A stretch of 15,643 bases of DNA from a virus (Duplodnaviria; Heunggongvirae; Uroviricota; Caudoviricetes): positions 1-15,643 of IMG/VR virus record IMGVR_UViG_2925919700_000004; one strand, 5' to 3'. Positions within the stretch are counted from its first letter, which is position 1. Each line of letters opens with the position of its first letter. The notes under the pieces are model-generated. The model was given only the letters and a program-made list of their open reading frames with translations, did no database searches and was not told where the DNA came from. The translations under genes and the position numbers were made by a program. Below are positions 1 to 11,286 of the stretch, piece after piece.

Positions 1-1074
1 TCATTTGTCGATTTCAATTTTGTCCCATTCCCGTCCACGGCTGTCCCTATACCGCGCCGCCATTGAATCTGATTTATGCCCGAGAAGACGTTGAGCAAAC
101 TTATCGCCAATCTGGTTCCGGTATAGCCTCGCTGACAGGCTACGCAGTTCATGGAATGTTGGCGGGTTTCCATCAAATGAGAGGCCAGATGCATTTCTCG
201 CCTTTGTAAAATACTTTGATACTGTTTTCGGGGAAAGCGGATCGTGATGCTTTGATGCGATTATAGTTTCACTGCTGCTGGCCTCCCTGCATTTCTGTAG
301 TGTATCAGCCAATGAGATATTGAGCGCGTCAATCGTTAGCGTTAGCGGAATGGCGAGTTTAGCCCCTGTTTTACTCTGTTTAATGTGAAGATGGTTGTCG
401 TTTATGTCTGACCATTTCATTCTGCACAAATCGCCGACTCTCTGCCCTGTAACGACGGCCAAATCCATCGCCAGCCTTAGCCAGATAGGGAGAGGTTCGG
501 CTGCATGGTAAATCTCGACATACTCATTAGCTGTCAGCCTTGAGCGCCTTACTTCTGACTTTGCTGTACGGGTTGCTGTTACCGGATTCGTTGCCACATG
601 CCCCTCGGCTATTGCTTCACGAAAAACGTCAACAAGGGTTGACCTGATTAATTTTGCGGAAGCTGCTTTACCTTCTGCTACGTAGGTGTTTAGCATTGCT
701 GCCACTTCTTTCGTTGATATGTCAGTGAGCGGTTTGTCCGGCAATTTTCTTCGGATTGCCCTGATTTTGCTGGCGTAGTCGAGTAGAGTTTTCGGCCTGA
801 TCCCCCTTTCGGTGAGGATTGTTTCATATCGGTCAAGCCACACATGAAGAGTGATTGCGTCACCGCCTTTAATTCTGTCTATCAGTGATTTGCGTCCGCT
901 GTCTGAGAGTAACTCAATATTGGCCTGTATTGCTTCAGTGATTGCTATCCTCCTGTCTCGGCCTAATCCAAACTCTTTACCCGTCCTTGGGTCCCTGTAG
1001 CAGTAATATCCATTGTTTCTTATATAAAGGTTAGGGGGTAAATCCCGGCGCTCATGACTTCGCCTTCTTCCCAT
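1..1074 (-). CDS. int: Phage integrase, tyrosine recombinase (lambda/HK022-type Int); complete, stop codon at positions 1-3
   Basis: 357-aa ORF. The first ~55 residues (MGRRRSHERRDLPPNLYIRNNGYYCYRDPRTGKEFGLGRDRRIAITEAIQANIEL) match the lambda Int arm-binding domain as I recall it. The C-terminal region has the tyrosine-recombinase catalytic context (PTFHELRSLSARLY ... LLGHKSDSMAARYRD). It overlaps xis by 23 nt as in lambda. Confidence 0.95.
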   Translation of the reverse strand: MGRRRSHERRDLPPNLYIRNNGYYCYRDPRTGKEFGLGRDRRIAITEAIQANIELLSDSGRKSLIDRIKGGDAITLHVWLDRYETILTERGIRPKTLLDYASKIRAIRRKLPDKPLTDISTKEVAAMLNTYVAEGKAASAKLIRSTLVDVFREAIAEGHVATNPVTATRTAKSEVRRSRLTANEYVEIYHAAEPLPIWLRLAMDLAVVTGQRVGDLCRMKWSDINDNHLHIKQSKTGAKLAIPLTLTIDALNISLADTLQKCREASSSETIIASKHHDPLSPKTVSKYFTKARNASGLSFDGNPPTFHELRSLSARLYRNQIGDKFAQRLLGHKSDSMAARYRDSRGREWDKIEIDK

Positions 1075-1270
1075 TTCTGATCCTCTTCAAAAGGCTACCT
1101 GTTACTGGTCGATTTAAGTCAACCTTTACCGCTGATTCGTGGAACAGATACTCTCTTCCATCCTTAACCGGAGGAGGGAATATCCTGCACTCGCGTACCC
1201 ATCGACGAACTGTTTCAAGGCTTCTTGGGCGTCGCTGGCGTGCGTTCCACTCCTGAAGTGTCAAGTACAT
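1052..1270 (-). CDS. xis: Excisionase Xis (lambda-type)
   Basis: 72-aa ORF MYLTLQEWNARQRRPRSLETVRRWVRECRIFPPPVKDGREYLFHESAVKVDLNRPVTG..LLKRIRNGKKAKS, essentially identical (one substitution by my recollection) to lambda Xis. Sits immediately upstream of and overlapping int. Confidence 0.92.
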   Translation of the reverse strand: MYLTLQEWNARQRRPRSLETVRRWVRECRIFPPPVKDGREYLFHESAVKVDLNRPVTGSLLKRIRNGKKAKS

Positions 1271-1295
1271 CGCAAAGTCTCCGCAATTACACGCA

Positions 1296-1317
1296 AGAAA
1301 AAACCGCCATCAGGCGG
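1296..1317 (-). terminator. Candidate Rho-independent terminator on the minus strand, upstream of xis
   Basis: Plus-strand CCGCC-atca-GGCGG (1304-1317) preceded by agaaaaaa. On the minus strand this is a GC stem-loop followed by UUUUUUCUUG. Confidence 0.5.
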
Positions 1318-1490
1318 CTTGGTGTTCTTTCAGTTCTTCAATTCGAATATTGGTTACGTCTGCATGTGCTATCTGCGCCCACAGCATCCAGTGGTCATAG
1401 CAGTCGCTGATGTTCTCGGCTTCGATAACTCTGTTGAATGGTTCTCCATTCCATTCACCTGTAACTCGGAAGTGCATTTATCATCTCCAT

Positions 1491-1515
1491 AAAACAAAAC
1501 TCGCCGTAGCGAGTT
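1491..1515 (-). terminator. Candidate Rho-independent terminator on the minus strand, downstream of the Ea8.5-like gene
   Basis: Perfect 7-bp stem AACTCGC/GCGAGTT (1498-1504 and 1509-1515) with a 4-nt loop. The minus-strand transcript continues into UUGUUUUAU (plus-strand aaaacaaaa at 1491-1499). Confidence 0.5.
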
Positions 1516-1565
1516 CAGATAAAAGAAATCCCCGCGAGTGCGAGGATAGTTACTTGTTCATATTA

Positions 1566-2108
1566 TTAATCGTCAATGTATTTTGAGCATTGTGGGCAAT
1601 CATCGATCCCACAATACGATTCATATGCATCCTTTATTGCGTCGCGGGCTTCAGTAAGAGTATTGAATAAGTTGCAGCTATTATCTTTTTGATATAGGTA
1701 AGTTCCTAATTTATAAGCAGAAGAAGCATCATTTCCGCTGTCTAAAATTACATCGTTATGGATTCTGCACCTTGCAAGAACTCCTGATCCCATATCGGTA
1801 ATTCTTATTCCTTCGCTACCATCCATTGGAGGCCATCCTTCCTGACCATTTCCATCATTCCAGTCGAACTCACACACAACACCATATGCATTTAAGTCGC
1901 TTGAAATTGCTATAAGCAGAGCATGTTGCGCCAGCATGATTAATACAGCATTTAATACAGAGCCGTGTTTATTGAGTCGGTATTCAGAGTCTGACCAGAA
2001 ATTATTAATCTGGTGAAGTTTTTCCTCTGTCATTACGTCATGGTCGATTTCAATTTCAATTGATGCTTTCCAGTCGTAATCAATGATGTATTTTTTGATG
2101 TTTGACAC
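1566..2108 (-). CDS. Ea8.5-like early-left protein with C-terminal Cys-x2-Cys zinc-binding motif and an N-terminal extension
   Basis: 180-aa ORF with GTG start at 2108 and a GAGGA Shine-Dalgarno about 9 nt upstream. The C-terminus (...SSAYKLGTYLYQKD...YESYCGIDDCPQCSKYIDD) resembles the C-terminus of lambda Ea8.5 as I recall it (...CPLCTKHIDD). It occupies the same position (first gene leftward of xis) with the same ~295-bp spacing as lambda ea8.5. AT-rich. Confidence 0.6.
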   Translation of the reverse strand: MSNIKKYIIDYDWKASIEIEIDHDVMTEEKLHQINNFWSDSEYRLNKHGSVLNAVLIMLAQHALLIAISSDLNAYGVVCEFDWNDGNGQEGWPPMDGSEGIRITDMGSGVLARCRIHNDVILDSGNDASSAYKLGTYLYQKDNSCNLFNTLTEARDAIKDAYESYCGIDDCPQCSKYIDD

Positions 2109-2126
2109 CTATTCATATCCTCATAG

Positions 2127-2154
2127 ATAAAAAATCGCCCTCACACTGGAGGGC
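2127..2154 (-). terminator. Candidate Rho-independent terminator on the minus strand
   Basis: 6-bp GC-rich stem GCCCTC/GAGGGC (2137-2142 and 2149-2154) with loop acactg. The minus-strand transcript continues GAUUUUUUAU (plus-strand ataaaaaat at 2127-2135). Confidence 0.5.
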
Positions 2155-2290
2155 AAAGAAGATTTCCAATAATCAGAACAAATCGGCTCCTGTTTAGTTA
2201 CGAGCGACATTGCTCCGTGTATTCACTCGTTGGAATGAATACACAGTGCAGTGTTTATTCTGTTATTTATGCCAAAAATAAAGGCCACTA

Positions 2291-2491
2291 TCAGGCAGCC
2301 TTGTTATTCTGTTTACCAAGTTCTCTGGCAATCATTGCCGTAGTTCGTATTGCCCATTTATCGACATATTTCCCATCCTCCATTACAGGAAACATTTCTT
2401 CAGGCTTAACCATGCATTCCGATTGCAGCTTGCATCCATTGCATCGCTTGAATTGTCCACACCATTGATTCTTATCAATAGTCGTAGTCAT
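2291..2491 (-). CDS. Small Cys-rich hypothetical protein (possible zinc-binding, 66 aa)
   Basis: ORF MTTTIDKNQWCGQFKRCNGCKLQSECMVKPEE... with a C-x5-C-x2-C-x5-C arrangement. Lies in the leftward operon between the Ea8.5-like gene and the basic protein gene. No family assignment possible without a search. Confidence 0.5.
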   Translation of the reverse strand: MTTTIDKNQWCGQFKRCNGCKLQSECMVKPEEMFPVMEDGKYVDKWAIRTTAMIARELGKQNNKAA

Positions 2492-2561
2492 ACGGATAGT
2501 CCTGGTATTGTTCCATCACATCCTGCGGATGCTCTTCGAACTCTTCAAATTCTTCTTCCAT
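2475..2561 (-). CDS. Very small acidic peptide ORF (28 aa, MEEEFEEFEEHPQDVMEQYQDYPYDYDY)
   Basis: ATG at 2561 preceded by GAGGTG. Stop TGA (2475-2477) overlaps the ATG of the downstream Cys-rich gene by 17 nt. Below the ORF-track size cutoff; may or may not be translated. Confidence 0.3.
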   Translation of the reverse strand: MEEEFEEFEEHPQDVMEQYQDYPYDYDY

Positions 2562-2569
2562 ATATCACC

Positions 2570-2896
2570 TCAAATAAGTGGTTTGCTGCCTAATTTCATT
2601 TTCTGGCGACCAACACAAGTCACACCCATTTCACTGCGTGGCTTGCTGTACCATGTGCGCTGATTCTTGCGCTCAATACGTTGCAGGTTGCTTTCAATCT
2701 GTTCGTGGTATTCAGACAGCACTGTAAGGTCTATCGGATTCAGTGCGCTTTCTACTCGTGATTTCGGTTTGCGATTCAGCGAGAGAATAGGGCGGTTAAC
2801 TGGTTTTGCGCTTACCCCAACCAACAGGGGATTTGCTGCTTTCCATTGAGCCTGTTTCTCTGCGCGACGTTCGCGGCGGCGTGTTTGTGCATCCAT
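2570..2896 (-). CDS. Hypothetical basic protein (108 aa, Arg/Lys-rich N-terminus)
   Basis: The track ORF 2570..2947 has an internal ATG at 2896 preceded by a strong AGGAG about 8 nt upstream (plus-strand ctcctgt at 2908-2914). N-terminus MDAQTRRRERRAEKQAQWKAANP is highly basic, which might indicate nucleic-acid binding. Confidence 0.5.
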   Translation of the reverse strand: MDAQTRRRERRAEKQAQWKAANPLLVGVSAKPVNRPILSLNRKPKSRVESALNPIDLTVLSEYHEQIESNLQRIERKNQRTWYSKPRSEMGVTCVGRQKMKLGSKPLI

Positions 2897-2983
2897 CTTT
2901 ATTCTCCTGTCAGTTAGCTTTGGTGGTGTGGTAGGTGGGAGACCCATTTCGACCTGCTTCGGCCGACTTCAATTCGGCAATAG

Positions 2984-3295
2984 TTCCGCAGGCCTCGCCG
3001 CTTTACGTGCGACATATTCCCACTCGATGCTAAATACACCGGAGAACTAGCTGATGCGAAAAAGCAGCTTGATGATCTGCAGCGTTGTGTTCGCACTGGC
3101 AAGTGTGGGCTGCACTTCAATGCCCGATGTCCAGCGAGCGGAAAGACCGGCACCGGCAGCTTGGGCGATGCTTCCAGCCCCGGACTTACTGACTCCGCTG
3201 AACGGGATTATTTCACCCTCAGAGAGCGAATCGTCACAGTGACGAAGCAGGTCGGCTACTTGCAGGACTACATCAAAGAGCAGTGTTCAAATTAG
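2984..3295 (+). pseudogene. Rz: 5'-truncated Rz (i-spanin) remnant; no start codon, N-terminal transmembrane domain missing
   Basis: Reading frame open from 2984 to stop TAG at 3293-3295 with no ATG/GTG/TTG start. Translation ...LDAKYTGELADAKKQL...DASSPGLTDSAERDYFTLREAIVTVTKQVGYLQDYIKEQCSN aligns with the C-terminal ~90 residues of lambda Rz (...LDAKYTKELADAKAEND...NAASPRLADTAERDYFTLRERLITMQKQLEGTQKYINEQCR, from memory). Confidence 0.8.
3054..3242 (+). CDS. Rz1: Rz1 (o-spanin) outer-membrane lipoprotein, embedded in the +1 frame of the Rz remnant
   Basis: 62-aa ORF MRKSSLMICSVVFALASVGCTSMPDVQRAERPAPAAWAMLPAPDLLTPLNGIISPSESESSQ, with a signal peptide ending in a lipobox-like SVGC and a proline-rich mature region. 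Strongly resembles lambda Rz1 (...VVGCTSK...PPPPPAWIMQPPPDWQTPLNGIISPSERG, from memory). Confidence 0.8.
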   Translation: MRKSSLMICSVVFALASVGCTSMPDVQRAERPAPAAWAMLPAPDLLTPLNGIISPSESESSQ

Positions 3296-3353
3296 TGTTA
3301 ATGAAGAATTTTAAGGGTAATATTATCTCTATTTCTCAGGATGGAGGTAATTT

Positions 3354-3761
3354 ATGCAGACCGATCTGGAATACTTGAAGGGAATGTTAGGGGTCTTTAT
3401 TAAGGCTGGCGGACCATTGATATCAGCTAATGACCTTAAAAAAGCTGGATACGAAATAAGCAGCGATAAAGGACTCTTTCATTACTACCAATTGATTGAG
3501 AGAGGTTATATTAGTAACCATTTTCTAGAAATAGGCGATCCTAAGAAATTAGGACTTACTATTGGGCTTAATGAAATCCGTGAATGGCCAGCCAATGTAA
3601 GACTCACGTCATCAGGCCAAGAGTTTGCAGAAACCCTTCAACAAAAGGCTGTTTTTGAGAAGCTAAAAACAATTAGCGATCAACCATTATCGGTATTGAA
3701 AGATGTTGGTGTAGAGCTTCTAAAATCCTACGCAAAAAAGAAATTTGGTCTTTCAGATTAA
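3354..3761 (+). CDS. Hypothetical cytoplasmic protein (135 aa), cargo gene of unknown function
   Basis: ATG at 3354 with GGAGG about 8 nt upstream. AT-rich compared with the flanking Rz and terminase genes. No transmembrane segment evident and no recognisable motif. Followed by a terminator-like hairpin. Confidence 0.6.
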   Translation: MQTDLEYLKGMLGVFIKAGGPLISANDLKKAGYEISSDKGLFHYYQLIERGYISNHFLEIGDPKKLGLTIGLNEIREWPANVRLTSSGQEFAETLQQKAVFEKLKTISDQPLSVLKDVGVELLKSYAKKKFGLSD

Positions 3762-3783
3762 CTGCCTATGGGCGGTTTTTATT
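3762..3783 (+). terminator. Candidate Rho-independent terminator
   Basis: CTGCC-tatg-GGCGG stem (one G-U pair) followed by TTTTTATT, immediately after the stop codon at 3759-3761. Confidence 0.45.
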
Positions 3784-3875
3784 GCCATTACGATGATTCT
3801 CCCCATCGTGATGGCAGTATCCCCTACAGAGGATAATTAACCATATATCCCCACAAGCGGATAAAGAGGCTCTCA

Positions 3876-3989
3876 ATGTCCGACATCTACCAAACCCAAA
3901 CAGGCGAAACCTTTACGGGCAAGACGTCACGACGTCAGCCTGATCTGGTTAATGGCTTTATGCAGCTGGCTACCGAGACGGGCGAGTAA
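3876..3989 (+). CDS. Possible small ORF (37 aa, MSDIYQTQTGETFTGKTSRRQPDLVNGFMQLATETGE)
   Basis: ATG at 3876 preceded by AAAGAGG about 5 nt upstream. GC content higher than surrounding AT-rich DNA. Too short to assess, so it may be a gene fragment. Confidence 0.25.
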   Translation: MSDIYQTQTGETFTGKTSRRQPDLVNGFMQLATETGE

Positions 3990-4077
3990 ATAACTCCATT
4001 AGGAGAATGTGGAACCATTACACTTTGAGCCGTTAACTGATATTGATAAAGGTAAATAATATCTTGGTTAAGGTTTT

Positions 4078-4350
4078 CTAATAGCCAGCCATTTGCAAAA
4101 TCACAGTTGCAGCAGCAGCGAAAGCTGCATATGAGTTATATTTAGACTGTAACCGCGCAGTTAAGAAAAATTCGTGAAGATCTACATTTTTTTTGGGATC
4201 ATCAAATGTAATTGCTACAACGGTGCTTCTACCTGTTTTGACTTTGGCTGTTGCTGATTTGATCCATAACCCAGCCGATAAAAACCCAAAGAAAATCGAT
4301 AGTGCATGATGGTCAATTAACCAGTTTTTAATTAGTAATAAATCACTCAT
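4078..4350 (-). CDS. Small hypothetical membrane protein (about 90 aa) antisense to the late operon, at the bor-equivalent position
   Basis: Track ORF 4078..4395 trimmed to the internal ATG at 4350 (MSDLLLIKNWLIDHHALSIFFGFLSAGLWI...). One clear and one weaker hydrophobic segment. AT-rich. Convergent with the 3354..3761 gene. Not similar to lambda Bor as I recall it. Confidence 0.45.
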   Translation of the reverse strand: MSDLLLIKNWLIDHHALSIFFGFLSAGLWIKSATAKVKTGRSTVVAITFDDPKKNVDLHEFFLTARLQSKYNSYAAFAAAATVILQMAGY

Positions 4351-4374
4351 TTTCAATCCAATTGAGACTTTGTC

Positions 4375-4926
4375 ATGGCACTCACCGACAAACAAGAGAT
4401 GTTCTGTCGCGAGTACCTCATCGATTTAAACGCCACGCAAGCGGCTATTCGGGCGGGGTACAGCGCAAAGACAGCTAACCGTACCGCATCCGAAAACCTG
4501 TCAAAACCTGACATCAAGTTAAGAATCGCCGAACTGAAAGCACAACGCAATGATCTTGTTGGTATTAATGCAGAATATGTACTTAATCGCCTTATTGAAA
4601 TCGACCAGATGGATGTGCTCGACATTCTCCTGCAAAACGGTGAGTTAAAGCCCATTAAAGACTGGCCTAAGGTATGGCGCACAACGCTATCAGGAATGGA
4701 TGTCGTGGAGATGGCATCCGCAGATAGCGCCGCACTTCTGAAGAAAATCAAATGGCCTGATAAGGTCAAAAACCTTGAGTTGCTCGGGCGTCATGTTTCT
4801 GTTCAGGCGTTTAAAGACAATGTCAAAAATGAAGTGACTGGCGCTGATGGAGGACCAGTCAGAACAGAAATTACCAACTTAACGCCGGAGCAGGCTGCAG
4901 AAGTGTATAAAAAAATGATGGGCTAA
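4375..4926 (+). CDS. terS: Terminase small subunit (Terminase_2 / P27-like family)
   Basis: 183-aa ORF starting [34 protein letters not shown]..., a characteristic N-terminal signature of this terminase small subunit family. Directly precedes the large subunit gene. Confidence 0.9.
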
Positions 4927-6551: not shown

Positions 6552-8017
6552 TGGCACGAAACAAACAAGCCACGCGGCGAACGGCACAGGCCACCGCTGA
6601 TGGCTATGAGAACTTTGTTGCCCGCGTGGGGATGCAGACGCCTAACCAGCACTCAGCATCGACCTACCGGGCTAACTTCACCAGTCGTAACCGCATGCTG
6701 GTGGAATGGTCCTATCGTTCGTCCTGGATCATCGGCGAAGCGGTCGACGCTATCCCGGATGATATGACCCGCAAAGGCATTCGCATCACTTCGGAAATTG
6801 ATGCAAAAGATCGTGGCATTCTCGAATCACAACTGGATGAGTTGCAAATCTGGGATGCGCTGAATGACGTGCTGAAATGGTCGCGCCTCTATGGCGGCGC
6901 GGTGGGTTTCATCATGATTGAGGGGCAGGCACCAATGACCCCGCTGCGACCCGAAACCATCGGTAAGGGCAAGTTTAAGGGGATTCTCCCGCTCGACCGC
7001 TGGATGATCGACCCGGTACTGACCCGCCGCATTAAAGATATGGGGCCGGACCTGGGTAAACCTGAGTTTTACGATGTGGTGACCACAGCAACGGGAATTC
7101 CTGCCTGGCGCATTCATCACAGTCGACTGATTCGCTTTGATGGCGTCACGCTGCCATTTCAGCAGAAGATGACTGAGAACGAATGGGGAATGTCGGTTGT
7201 AGAGCGTATCTGGGATCGTCTTACCGCGTTCGACAGCGCTACTGTCGGCGCGGCGCAGCTGGTCTACAAAGCGCATCTGCGGACCTACAAGGTGGAAAAA
7301 CTTCGTGAGCTTATTGCGCTGGGCGGCCAGGCATTCGAGGCGCTGCTGAAAAACATTGATCTGATTCGACAGTTTCAGAGCAATGAAGGCATGACACTAA
7401 TGGATGCCAAAGATACCTTCGAAACCCACCAGTACAGCTTCAGTGGTCTGGATGACATTCTTTCGCAGTTCGCTGAGCAGATCAGCGGTGCCGTCGGCAT
7501 CCCGCTGGTACGCCTGTTTGGTCAATCCCCGAAAGGCTTCTCAACTGGTGACGCAGACCTCGCCAACTATTACGACCGGGTGAGTTCATTGCAGGAGCGA
7601 CGATTACGGCTGCCGATGCGCCGGATACTGGACATTATGCACCGCTCGGAACTCGGTAAGCCGCTGCCGGACGATTTCACGTTTGAGTTTAACCCGCTCT
7701 GGCAAATGTCTGATGTCGATCGTTCAACGGTGGCGTTAAATACCACCAACGCAATCAGTACAGCGCTGGGTGATGGTCTGATGACACTGAAAGCCGCTAT
7801 GACTGATTTGCGCGAAAATTCTGACGTAACCGGCATCGGGGCATCCATTACCGACGAGGACATAGAGAATGCCGAAGACGAAGCGCCGCCAGGCATCCGC
7901 GAACCTGATGACGAACCGCAGGAGCCGTCAGGCGGAAATCCGCTATCGAACCAGCCTACGCAGGATAGCGCGGGCGGTCGGAGACATCGTAAATGGTCAC
8001 TACGATGGTTCAAATGA
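6551..8017 (+). CDS. Portal protein
   Basis: 488-aa ORF immediately downstream of and translationally coupled to terL, preceded by GGGAGA. Size, position and acidic C-terminal tail are typical of portal proteins in Mu-like or SPP1-like head modules. Followed by a Mu-F-like gene. Confidence 0.8.
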   Translation: MARNKQATRRTAQATADGYENFVARVGMQTPNQHSASTYRANFTSRNRMLVEWSYRSSWIIGEAVDAIPDDMTRKGIRITSEIDAKDRGILESQLDELQIWDALNDVLKWSRLYGGAVGFIMIEGQAPMTPLRPETIGKGKFKGILPLDRWMIDPVLTRRIKDMGPDLGKPEFYDVVTTATGIPAWRIHHSRLIRFDGVTLPFQQKMTENEWGMSVVERIWDRLTAFDSATVGAAQLVYKAHLRTYKVEKLRELIALGGQAFEALLKNIDLIRQFQSNEGMTLMDAKDTFETHQYSFSGLDDILSQFAEQISGAVGIPLVRLFGQSPKGFSTGDADLANYYDRVSSLQERRLRLPMRRILDIMHRSELGKPLPDDFTFEFNPLWQMSDVDRSTVALNTTNAISTALGDGLMTLKAAMTDLRENSDVTGIGASITDEDIENAEDEAPPGIREPDDEPQEPSGGNPLSNQPTQDSAGGRRHRKWSLRWFK

Positions 8018-8492
8018 TAGCGTTACCGAAATAATGGATGCGCTGGAGCGCTACAGCGAAATCATCACCCCCTGGGCGACGAAGGTTGCTGAGAACTTTA
8101 CCGCCGACATTGCACGCCAGAATGAAAAGCAGTGGCGTCAGTACAGCCGGAACATCAGCGCAGAGCTGCGCAACATGGTCGACCGCGCCCCGGTAGGCCA
8201 GGTGATGAAATCCATCGTCGCCGAGCAAATTAAGTACATCAAGTCACTGCCTCTTGAGGCCGCCGATCGGGTGTATGACATTCAGAACAAGGCCATCGAG
8301 GCCGTTGTGTCTGGTGGCCGCGCTGAACCATTCGCGAAAGAGATAGCAGCGTCCGGTGACGTGTCACGCTCACGAGCGAACCTTATCGCCCGTACCGAGC
8401 TTGGACGTGCAACCGGCGCACTCGATCAGGCGCGTGCGCTGTCAATCGGCTCGAATGGTTATAACGTGGCGTCATTACTGGGAGGCGGCTAA
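7869..8492 (+). CDS. Head morphogenesis protein, Mu F / SPP1 gp7-like minor head protein
   Basis: 207-aa ORF containing the ...SRANLIARTELGRA... motif typical of the Phage_Mu_F domain. ATG at 7869 has GAGGA about 8 nt upstream but overlaps the portal gene by 149 nt; alternative in-frame starts are at 7908 and 8034. Confidence 0.75.
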   Translation: MPKTKRRQASANLMTNRRSRQAEIRYRTSLRRIARAVGDIVNGHYDGSNDSVTEIMDALERYSEIITPWATKVAENFTADIARQNEKQWRQYSRNISAELRNMVDRAPVGQVMKSIVAEQIKYIKSLPLEAADRVYDIQNKAIEAVVSGGRAEPFAKEIAASGDVSRSRANLIARTELGRATGALDQARALSIGSNGYNVASLLGGG

Positions 8493-8794
8493 TGACAATT
8501 CAGGAAATTCCGCTGACAGCGGACAACCAGCAGTTCAGCATCGTCCTGGGTGGTGTCACCTGGCGGATTAGCATCATATGGCGAGATCCTTACTGGATTA
8601 TGGACCTGCAGAACGACAGAGGGGAGCCGGTAATCTCCGGTATTCCTCTCGTCACTGGCGCTGATCTGCTGGCGCAGTACGCCTGTATGGGGCTTGGTTT
8701 TAAGCTGGTGGTGGTCTGCGATGACAACACACAGGATTACCCCACAAAAACTGATCTTGGCGGCCGCAGTCATTTACTGGTATCAACGGAGTAA
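8492..8794 (+). CDS. Hypothetical structural-module protein (100 aa)
   Basis: Start overlaps the previous stop (TAATG) with a GGGAGG Shine-Dalgarno, and the next gene starts 3 nt after its stop, indicating translational coupling within the late operon. Function not recognisable. Confidence 0.5.
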   Translation: MTIQEIPLTADNQQFSIVLGGVTWRISIIWRDPYWIMDLQNDRGEPVISGIPLVTGADLLAQYACMGLGFKLVVVCDDNTQDYPTKTDLGGRSHLLVSTE

Positions 8795-8796
8795 GC

Positions 8797-9861
8797 ATGT
8801 CACAGAACTGGATGAGACATTTCGAGCTGCAGCTTGTGGACGGGAACGGTCAGGGAATTGAGCTAAGTGATTTCAAAGTCACCTTTACGATCGACTGGTT
8901 CAACATCAGCAGCGCGTCCCGGGTAGGGACTATCAAAATTTATAACCTCTCGGCAGATACTGTGAACCGAATCACCGGGCAGGAATTTTCGAAAGTGCGT
9001 CTGATTGCCGGTTACGACGGTATCGCGCCGGAGGTGTCAGCAAGCGACGTAGGGACCGTGCGGGAAGTTGACGCGGCGGACGTGGGCCAGAGAGATGGCC
9101 GCAACTACGGACTGATTTTCAGCGGTGAAATTCGCTACTCGGTCACAGGAAAAGACAGTCCGGTTGATACCTACGTCCTGATTCAGGCAGCAGATACTGA
9201 TCTGGCTTTTGCCACCAGTATAACCTCACAGACGCTGGCTGCCGGTTACACGGTCGCTGATGTGAACCGTGCGCTGATGAAAGACTTCGAAGCCAAAGGC
9301 GCGACCGAAGGCCTGACGCCTGAAATGCCTGCTACTGTATTCCCCCGGGGGCGGGTACTCTTTGGCATGACGCGGCATCTTATGGATAACGTAGCTGGTC
9401 AATGTGGTGCAACATGGCAATTCGTGGACGGTCAACGCCAGATGGTGGCGAATAACGAATATGTTCATGAAGCGATTGTGCTCAACAGCGCCACCGGGCT
9501 TATCGGCATGCCGCAGCAGACTATCGGCAACGGTGTAAACGTCCGTGCGCTGATTAATCCGAACATCCGGGTTAACGGGCTTATTCAGCTGGATCAGGCT
9601 TCCGTGTACCGCACCGCGCTGTCGAACAATGATATCGCGATGGCTGGTGGTCAGATCACCGACCAGAACACGGACGGAAATATCACGCTAAGCGGCACCA
9701 CAGCACAACCTGCCAGCATCGCAACGGATGGCGTTTATATTGTGCGCGGGATTATGTACACTGGAGATACAAGGGGCCAGGCGTGGTACATGGATATGAT
9801 GTGCGAAGCGCGTGGCGCGGCGGATCTTCAAAGTCAAGGAGCAATGAATCGGTGGGGATAA
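8797..9861 (+). CDS. Putative baseplate hub protein (gpD / Mu gp44-like); assignment by position and size only
   Basis: 354-aa ORF with ACGGAG Shine-Dalgarno. It is the last core gene before the spike-wedge-J-gp48 baseplate set, which is where Mu-like and P2-like modules place the hub. No diagnostic motif recognised, so the functional call is weak. Confidence 0.4.
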   Translation: MSQNWMRHFELQLVDGNGQGIELSDFKVTFTIDWFNISSASRVGTIKIYNLSADTVNRITGQEFSKVRLIAGYDGIAPEVSASDVGTVREVDAADVGQRDGRNYGLIFSGEIRYSVTGKDSPVDTYVLIQAADTDLAFATSITSQTLAAGYTVADVNRALMKDFEAKGATEGLTPEMPATVFPRGRVLFGMTRHLMDNVAGQCGATWQFVDGQRQMVANNEYVHEAIVLNSATGLIGMPQQTIGNGVNVRALINPNIRVNGLIQLDQASVYRTALSNNDIAMAGGQITDQNTDGNITLSGTTAQPASIATDGVYIVRGIMYTGDTRGQAWYMDMMCEARGAADLQSQGAMNRWG

Positions 9862-9863
9862 GA

Positions 9864-10328
9864 TTGAATAAGAAAGCCATTTTTATTGCAATAATTTTAC
9901 TTGTTCCGATGTCGGGATTAGCCGCTCCTGGGAAGTATGAAAAAATGGCTGTTGATTTAATGGATCAGCAAAAGTTTACGCAGTGGCAACATTACGCCTC
10001 TGCTACTCCTTTTTTCGCTATGAATGGTCGCAGATTCGCCATGACCATTGATGATTTCGCGGATATAGTCAGCAACTCCTTTCAAGAATGCGAAGATCTG
10101 GATTCCTACACCAATCGGAAAGGAACTACGGATGATTGTAAGTCCTATGTTTACAAAGGCATAAAGGAGTGGGTAAACCTCTCTCAAGATAAGTCTGTTA
10201 GCGATACAGCATGGAAAATGGGCCAGCGCTATGCCTTCAACACACGTAATCCTATTGCCCATAAAAACGCATGGGATTTCAATGGGATGGCGGCCGGTAT
10301 TCGCGTTGCTAAATCTCAAGGTTATTAA
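9864..10328 (+). CDS. Hypothetical secreted protein (about 155 aa) with N-terminal signal peptide; cargo gene
   Basis: I prefer the TTG start at 9864 (MNKKAIFIAIILLVPMSGLAAPGKYEK...), which gives a classic signal peptide with a positively charged n-region, hydrophobic core and small residues before the cleavage site. The track start (GTG 9783) would overlap the upstream gene. Two cysteines in the mature part. Markedly AT-rich. Confidence 0.55.
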   Translation: MNKKAIFIAIILLVPMSGLAAPGKYEKMAVDLMDQQKFTQWQHYASATPFFAMNGRRFAMTIDDFADIVSNSFQECEDLDSYTNRKGTTDDCKSYVYKGIKEWVNLSQDKSVSDTAWKMGQRYAFNTRNPIAHKNAWDFNGMAAGIRVAKSQGY

Positions 10329-10553
10329 GTCATGGATGCGCCGAAAATCATCGGATCTTTCCCTTGTAAAAAAGTGGCTGGGCGATGATTTTTGACGTCC
10401 ATAATATTATGGATGAACTGTTGCCAATTGCGCTAATTTTAACAAAATAATACTGGTTAACGCATTTTTTGAACCATCTGTACACAGTAGTTGTCTATAC
10501 TTTACCTTAAAGGTAAACTCTGCGCTCCACTGATGTTCACTATGGGAGGGGAT

Positions 10554-10793
10554 ATGAGGAAAATCGTTAATCGTTACTTAGCCGCTGCCGGTAGTGTTAT
10601 GGACATTATGCCGACTACAGATTACTGGCAATATGCTGCTTCTGGATCTGATTGTCGGGCAATAAGAAGTGATGTTAAAGTCATTGCAAGTGACATGAAC
10701 AGAGTTATCAGGTATGAGTTCAAAACCCCGCAAGCAGGCGGCCGTTCTCAAAAAGCATCAGGAAAACAAAGCGTCGCAAAAAACCGTTCCTGA
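10554..10793 (+). CDS. Small hypothetical protein (80 aa)
   Basis: Track ORF 10491..10793 trimmed to the ATG at 10554, which has a strong GGGAGGGG Shine-Dalgarno 4-5 nt upstream. The 3' end overlaps the next ORF by 80 nt in another frame. Confidence 0.35.
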   Translation: MRKIVNRYLAAAGSVMDIMPTTDYWQYAASGSDCRAIRSDVKVIASDMNRVIRYEFKTPQAGGRSQKASGKQSVAKNRS

Positions 10794-11286
10794 TTCGGAT
10801 GGTATCGACGAAGATATTGATTCCTCGGAATATGATGAGTCTCAGGAAGTAGTGGAAAAGCTGTCTGCAGTTGCCAACCTTGATCCTGAGCTAAAATCGA
10901 AGTTAACACCTGAACTTCTTGAGAGAGTTTCTAAGAACCCGAAGGTTATTGCCATGTTTCAGCAGGAGTCTTTTCAGGGACCACTCCCACCTCCTGCTAT
11001 GCTCTTACAATATAATCAAATATTACCCGGCGGCGCTGAGAGAATTTTCAGGCTAACCGAAAAAGAGCAAGAGCATAGGCATAAGACGCAAAGTGATGCA
11101 TTACTTGGTGCGGTTTCACGCGACAAACGTGGGCAATGGATGGGATTTTGCATTGCAATGGTAGTGCTTATAATGGCTGCGTTTTTTGCTAATCGCGGTA
11201 ACACTTGGTTCGCAGGTACTCTTGCTACTTTAGATCTCGTAGGATTAACTACAGTGTTTGTTTATGGTAGGAAGAAACCTAAATAA
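10714..11286 (+). CDS. Hypothetical membrane protein with C-terminal paired transmembrane helices (possibly DUF2335-like)
   Basis: 190-aa ORF with an acidic/charged N-terminal half, a conserved-looking LPPPAMLLQYNQILPGGAERIF segment, and two C-terminal hydrophobic segments (MGFCIAMVVLIMAAFFA and FAGTLATLDLVGLTTVFVY). The family name is from memory and unverified. Confidence 0.55.
   Translation: MSSKPRKQAAVLKKHQENKASQKTVPDSDGIDEDIDSSEYDESQEVVEKLSAVANLDPELKSKLTPELLERVSKNPKVIAMFQQESFQGPLPPPAMLLQYNQILPGGAERIFRLTEKEQEHRHKTQSDALLGAVSRDKRGQWMGFCIAMVVLIMAAFFANRGNTWFAGTLATLDLVGLTTVFVYGRKKPK

Follow-up and report, generated by a model that had tools for sequence, protein, structure and literature searches.

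How does an early-left gene of a lambdoid prophage come to lie next to a gene for a lysis protein, and what is to be made of a complete lipoprotein gene embedded in that lysis gene when the latter has lost its own beginning? Did the intervening DNA drop out of one prophage, did two phage genomes recombine, or is the junction an artifact of assembly? Given that the embedded gene is whole, is it there by chance, or is it kept because it does something for the host? The locus that raises these questions lies in the window, i.e., the whole 15,643-nt stretch of DNA that was analysed. A preliminary description of this DNA placed a minus-strand gene starting at 2896 near an Rz reading frame; that gene is N, and the plus-strand frame beyond it is open from 2984. 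The features discussed below are collected in Table 1.

Table 1. Positions in the 15,643-nt window of the genes, gene remnants and junctions discussed in the text
Feature	Position	Strand	Remarks
Fusion gene DUF2528::Ea8.5, in frame, 180 aa (junction j1)	1566..2108	-	Junction ATA 1792-1794, 3-bp microhomology
Lambda-type antitermination gene N	2570..2896	-	108 aa; Pfam N36 E=1.6e-26
Surviving N leader, 126 nt including Shine-Dalgarno	2897..3022	-	nutL and pL missing
Deletion junction j2	3021..3022		CA dinucleotide present in both parents, i.e., 2-bp microhomology
Rz (i-spanin) remnant, 5'-truncated	3023..3295	+	Codons 64-153; no start codon, no transmembrane segment
Rz1, o-spanin lipoprotein precursor, complete, 62 aa	3054..3242	+	+1 frame of Rz; Pfam Rz1
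ORF135, 135 aa, unknown function	3354..3761	+	38% G+C; PHROG 585
90-aa ORF	4078-4350	-	PHROG 14357
Truncated Mu-F-like minor head gene (junction j3)	7869..8492	+	Junction TA 8462-8463, 2-bp microhomology

The window is the whole remnant of a lambdoid prophage of ~41 kb, sited between torS and torT in Escherichia coli. It is exactly identical to positions 5073-20715 of one carrier locus (L040) and runs from the int stop codon on the torS side to the tail-fibre assembly gene on the torT side, its first and last positions coinciding exactly with the stop of each gene. In the chromosome, torS adjoins int and torT adjoins the tail-fibre assembly gene, both flanks being collinear, and 4.85 kb of the chromosomal flank match E. 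coli B7A at 100% identity. The site holds other prophages in other strains, e.g., B7A and EC5502. No direct repeat of at least 10 nt that could represent the att core occurs in the immediate flanks examined (L040 4979-5072 and 20716-21066). Profile searches of the window found no repressor, replication, Q, holin, endolysin, capsid, sheath, tube or tape-measure genes. With normal chromosomal flanks at an attachment site and the essential modules absent, the element has the properties of a defective prophage, and it has lost the capacity for replication, lysis and particle assembly.

What is left of Rz? The plus-strand frame is open over 2984-3295 and is preceded by a TAG at 2981-2983, and no ATG, GTG or TTG occurs in it between this stop and an internal TTG at 3161, i.e., there is no full-length Rz. 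From 3023 onward, the translation matches positions 36-125 of the 126 in Pfam Phage_lysis (PF03245; E=1.2e-26), so that the identification as Rz, made at first from the letters, holds in a real search. In intact prophages Rz has 153 aa; the remnant retains nt 190-462 (codons 64-153), and residues 1-63, including the hydrophobic N-terminal anchor MSRVTAIISALVICIIVCLSWAV, are missing from the window, as expected if the N-terminal transmembrane half of the protein has gone. No difference from the intact Rz regions falls inside Rz, and the window is 99.8-99.9% identical to them over 3021-4000. Thus, the homology to the periplasmic domain of the family is there, and the N-terminal transmembrane domain and the start codon are not. 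Spanin action needs both subunits, and Rz requires an N-terminal membrane anchor with type II inner-membrane topology (PMC5295617). Because the remnant is without a start codon, no i-spanin would be made from it, and judged from its sequence, the Rz frame is a gene remnant rather than a working member of the family.

The frame was initially read as Rz from 2984 on. That it is open and startless from there is correct; the Rz-derived DNA itself begins at 3021-3023, and 2984-3020 is DNA of the N leader that happens by chance to be open in the Rz frame. This follows from a megablast search with positions 2500-3800 against 5,426 complete E. coli genomes and 50,697 phage records, which returned two disjoint sets of matches. 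The left set covers 2500-3029 (N and its leader) and the right set 3021-3800 (the 3' part of Rz, Rz1 and the 135-aa ORF). These BLAST extents recur in thousands of E. coli genomes and in hundreds of phages, and none of the 5,426 genomes or 50,697 phage records spans the junction, which we call j2. When six left parents (L001, L031-L033, L035 and L036) were each paired with the right parent L020 and compared with the window column by column, all six were identical to it through 3022 and wholly divergent beyond, and L020 was identical from 3021 and unrelated before. In BLAST, the match to the window begins at 3021 in all ten right parents (L002, L004, L020-L023 and L025-L028). A deletion with one end inside Rz had been predicted at roughly 2984-3022, and alignment to intact relatives places the breakpoint at 3021-3022, at the right-hand edge of that range; a search for microhomology there turned up the two shared base pairs and no more. 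With both flanks agreeing with independent sequences at 99.8-100% as far as the junction itself, coincidence is ruled out as the source of the feature. The alignments demonstrate the junction and the identity of its two flanks, together with the losses described below. In an exact scan, a 24-mer across j2 had no match in GTDB species representatives, IMG/VR or JGI metagenome contigs; ten carrier loci (L006-L009, L024, L030, L034 and L040-L042) do contain the junction, at 100% identity.

How much DNA is missing at j2? On the left, six loci (L031, L033 and L035-L038) match window positions 1792-3022 with zero mismatches; the 99.84% that BLAST reports over 1792-3029 counts divergent bases past the junction. 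Three of these loci (L031, L033 and L035) carry the exact N of the window and continue through pL, a gene for an SDH-type protease, cI, cro, cII, O, DnaB, nin and Q, and L033 and L035 extend further, to holin and lysozyme. In its overlap with L035 (the lysis-Q-nin region and the immunity region), L028 is 99.9-100% identical, and it runs on into the stretch from Rz through ORF135 to the terminase as found in the window. On the composite of L035 and L028, the deletion at j2 measures 10,493 bp. The spacing of 15-20 kb between early-left genes and Rz that had been assumed is therefore too large for this phage type, in which ~10.5 kb was lost. The idea of a deletion between the early-left genes and Rz stands, with the addition that its left end lies in the N leader, so that nutL and pL went too. 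Holin and endolysin were said not to precede Rz, and indeed neither is found anywhere in the window.

Based on these comparisons, we propose an illegitimate deletion of ~10.5 kb, guided by microhomology only, inside a lambdoid prophage between torS and torT. In this model, one end of the deletion would lie 126 nt upstream of the start codon of N and the other at Rz nt 188-190, with the loss of nutL, pL, the immunity region, the replication genes, nin, Q, holin, endolysin and codons 1-63 of Rz. Two more deletions of the same kind (5.3 kb and 9.8 kb) would, with j2, have cut the ~41-kb prophage down to 15.6 kb. Taken as a whole, i.e., a deletion scar within a single prophage accompanied by two sister deletions, this is the best explanation of the locus, and we hold it with high confidence. 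Since no single contig among the retrieved loci has both undeleted flanks at ~100% identity and the ancestor is pieced together from L035 and L028, we infer the exact size of the deletion and its origin in a single prophage.

Could the junction instead have arisen by illegitimate recombination between two phage genomes, either tandem prophages at torS/torT or a resident prophage and an infecting phage? The exact left flank (the N leader) and the exact right flank (the Rz allele) never occur together on one retrieved locus, as such an origin would have it. Candidates for the undeleted ancestor were also rejected one after another. B7A has the identical chromosomal flank but a different lambda-like prophage at the site. 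STEC346 (L045), the complete genome that comes closest in immunity region and N, carries P22-like late genes, and a search for a sibling through the exact TerL of the window led to the deleted form in 20 of 20 contigs, with no undeleted sibling carrying the head module of the window; both of these outcomes would also fit two parental phages. However, L022 and L028 combine lambda-type early regions with the Rz and late module of the window in single prophages; on L022 in particular, lambda-type N, immunity, replication, Q and lysis genes and the window-type Rz and late module all lie on a single contig. The close agreement between L035 and L028 in their overlap points the same way. Moreover, the order and orientation of the flanks are exactly as in one prophage, the chromosomal flanks on the torS and torT sides are both collinear, and the two other scars are each accounted for by one intact relative. 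We therefore favour loss within one prophage and consider an origin from two phages improbable.

j2 does not stand alone: the element bears three deletion scars, the others lying at 1792-1794 (j1) and 8462-8463 (j3). At all three, domains recognised by Pfam and PHROG are truncated, and at all three, intact relatives carry the two flanks collinearly, with additional DNA in between. At j1, the N terminus of a DUF2528 protein is joined to the C terminus of Ea8.5 (Pfam DUF2528 at residues 16-110 and Lambda_ea8_5 at residues 106-180; PHROG 646 and PHROG 6325). Window positions 1-1794 are 100% identical to the int-xis-ea8.5 region of the torS-adjacent EC5502 prophage (L005), which also matches 1792-2259, 5,334 bp further on; relative to that prophage, exo, bet, gam, kil and cIII are lost. 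Gene callers differ on the j1 product, some giving a 180-aa protein and others an Ea8.5 fragment of 75 aa. At j3, the Mu-F-like head gene, which keeps only positions 2-50 of the 112 in Pfam Phage_Mu_F, is joined to a baseplate-plug gene (8492-8794), and 9,758 bp are missing relative to the intact L003, comprising scaffold, cement, capsid, neck, sheath, tube, chaperone and tape-measure genes. Three further loci (L014, L018 and L019) have an undeleted tail module, share the torT flank and carry the baseplate module of the window at 99.94-100% identity. Over the three deletions, ~25.6 kb of the ~41-kb prophage was lost. Some imperfect similarity surrounds the TA microhomology at j3, and terminase and portal persist in the remnant without a capsid. 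In the exact-protein look-up, the truncated Mu-F fusion protein had no record, and the 305-aa tail-fibre ORF returned only short unrelated contigs.

What of the gene on the left of the junction? The translation of N starts MDAQTRRRERRAEKQAQW; the Pfam N36 match spans residues 2-36, and the arginine-rich N-terminal peptide that binds boxB is present. Sequence matching it is annotated as "antitermination protein N" in E. coli genomes. Gene callers are split over its start, between ATG 2947 (125 aa, a frequent call) and ATG 2896 (108 aa), the latter having a GGAG upstream. The 108-aa start fits the experimentally known N terminus of lambda N, and the 125-aa call parallels the old 133-aa annotation in lambda record J02459. 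Up to base 3022, the leader is 99.8-100% identical to that of intact prophages (L001, L031-L033 and L035-L036). In the intact left parents, boxB (GCCCTGAAGAAGGGC) begins 47 nt past the junction, followed by a boxA-like element and a lambda-like pL start. In the window, the nut site (boxA/boxB) and pL upstream of N are both deleted, and N is therefore without its own promoter and nut site.

On the other side of the junction, Rz1 is complete in the +1 frame, as the preliminary description had it: it scores 56.4 bits against Pfam Rz1 (PF06085; cut-off 27.9, E=2.5e-15), is 100% identical to the Rz1 embedded in an intact parent (L002) and is called as a gene in three carriers (L024, L030 and L040). 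A ribosome-binding GGAG lies at 3041-3044, 9 nt upstream of the start. Read from the translation, the product has a signal peptide, a lipobox cysteine and a short proline-rich mature part (MRKSSLMICSVVFALASVG-C-TS...RPAPAAWAMLPAPD), with lipid modification being predicted. As in lambda, whose Rz1 is contained entirely within the +1 frame of Rz (PMC5295617), the embedding is preserved, and the window's Rz1 shares with lambda Rz1 a proline-rich core and the conserved C terminus TPLNGIISPSE. The C-terminal periplasmic part of Rz is likewise conserved between the two. In contrast to lambda, the i-spanin of the window has neither start codon nor transmembrane domain and is missing most of the first coiled coil, so that no spanin complex would be able to form; that is, the cognate partner of Rz1 is truncated and a functional pair is absent. 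Also unlike lambda, the window has no holin, no endolysin and no late transcription unit of the pR'/Q type.

Can Rz1 still be expressed? A promoter scan of 2.1 kb yielded 3 sites, where 4.0 would be expected by chance, and no sigma-70-like site on the plus strand from 2400 to the Rz1 start at 3054. Leftward transcription into N could start from two promoter-like sites on the minus strand (4376->4349 and 3715->3686). The lack of a consensus promoter does not by itself mean that Rz1 or N is untranscribed, and Rz1 still has its ribosome-binding site. Nonetheless, because the late promoter, Q and the i-spanin partner are lost, Rz1 is most likely silent, or at least functionless, a recent passenger of the deletion. 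It would have been spared solely through the breakpoint falling 32 nt upstream of its start codon. Given that the flanks are 99.8-100% identical to those of intact relatives, the deletions are recent and decay by point mutation has not yet begun; an intact Rz1 is therefore no evidence of selection.

A different reading would have Rz1 kept by selection, with the orphan o-spanin being expressed and serving the host and with the position of the breakpoint just upstream of Rz1 reflecting that selection. The gene is 100% intact, with the Shine-Dalgarno sequence, the signal peptide and the cysteine of the lipobox all in place, and an independent remnant, the Rac prophage of K-12, keeps an intact rzoR beside a dead rzpR. 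However, the carriers are all 100% identical and their flanks 99.8-100% identical to intact prophages, leaving no time for selection to become visible; there is no promoter-like site upstream; and a spanin works only with both subunits (PMC5295617). Furthermore, Rz1 begins at nt 221 of the 462 of Rz, so that a breakpoint falling anywhere inside Rz would by chance leave it whole about half of the time, and many other genes of the remnant are just as intact and have no obvious use. We consider selection on Rz1 very unlikely. The same low credence extends to the broader idea that orphan o-spanins, such as this Rz1 and the rzoR of Rac, are preferentially spared when lysis cassettes are lost, the lipoprotein being expressed alone and benefiting the host as a domesticated half of a spanin. 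The orphan Rz1 would matter only if this were true, i.e., if it were expressed and selectively retained across many remnants. Passive survival of Rz1 at a recent breakpoint remains the reading that we adopt.

Is an orphan Rz1 unusual, as the preliminary description supposed? It is not, since a scar of the same kind, with an intact Rz1-type gene beside a dead Rz, lies in the best-studied bacterial genome. In the Rac prophage of E. coli K-12 (L039, NC_000913.3 1422752-1423644), ydaW, a DUF1627 fragment, is followed by the rzpR pseudogene with an intact embedded rzoR, and trkG lies beyond. As in the window, a fragment of an early-region gene abuts a dead Rz with an intact embedded gene of Rz1 type, and holin, endolysin and the late antiterminator are missing. 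The ydaW/rzpR/rzoR arrangement is itself a deletion junction, joining a DUF1627 gene to the 5' end of Rz. Compared with a Rac-like intact prophage (L004), ~7.1 kb is absent from Rac, including a Q-like gene, hokD, holin and endolysin, among others. The two scars differ in being independent events: the left partner in Rac comes from the early-right replication region rather than from the N leader, the breakpoint in Rz is at about nt 21 rather than nt 188-190, and the Rz/Rz1 alleles have ~79% DNA identity. Rac is also old and widespread, whereas the element described here is confined to isolates in which it is 100% identical. A literature search returned nothing on the function of rzoR or rzpR.

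More generally, defective lambdoid prophages of E. coli resemble the window in having lost replication, lysis and virion genes to multiple internal deletions, in keeping intact genes here and there at a normal att site and in showing microhomology of 2-3 bp at the junctions. There is no difference in kind; the window is unusually clean, with three deletions and no decay by point mutation. The feature is thus a real but ordinary deletion scar, one case of prophage decay by deletion. Its value is mostly one of annotation: the "Rz1" and "N" called in carriers are leftovers that have no promoter, partner or target site. It also offers a clean, datable case of a lambdoid prophage disabled by a few microhomology-mediated deletions before point-mutational decay.

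The scar is inherited in many isolates. Exact-protein look-ups placed the element in five NCBI assemblies (GCA_014746555.1, GCA_012700065.1, GCA_013370385.1, GCA_013370735.1 and GCA_033267405.1) and in several Logan-assembled runs. These copies match the window at 100% identity over as much as 15,643 nt, and every contig that extends to one of the junctions has it; a single Logan contig carrying the N-leader::Rz junction is common to 7 samples, and contigs of up to 263 kb hold the element in normal chromosomal flanks. The suspicion that j2 is an assembly or sequencing chimera of two unrelated prophage fragments, which its absence from the complete E. coli genomes, the phage collection, GTDB representatives, IMG/VR and JGI metagenomes might arouse, can be dismissed as almost certainly wrong, given the identical junctions in at least five independent NCBI assemblies and several independently assembled runs, the long contigs in normal flanks and an overlap of 2 bp, which cannot produce a k-mer misjoin. 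An unusual but functional phage gene order was likewise rejected for the N-leader::Rz arrangement.

To the right of Rz, the order Rz, ORF135, small terminase gene also occurs in L002, L004 and L020-L029; since ORF135 follows Rz in these intact relatives, the right flank of the junction is the normal continuation of the late region. ORF135 has no Pfam match, and neither it nor the neighbouring ORFs have a PADLOC match, their PHROGs being of "unknown function" only. The DNA between Rz and the small terminase gene forms a low-G+C island (3300-4400; 37-38% versus 49% overall), conserved across many intact relatives, which has the look of a moron cassette. A terminator-like hairpin follows ORF135, at 3760-3777. 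The baseplate module has a mosaic patch (9827-10331) that is unmatched in the otherwise 97%-identical L003 and encodes a 154-aa ORF (9864-10328) with no family match, and a predicted membrane protein of the DUF2335 family (10714-11286) is encoded among the baseplate genes.
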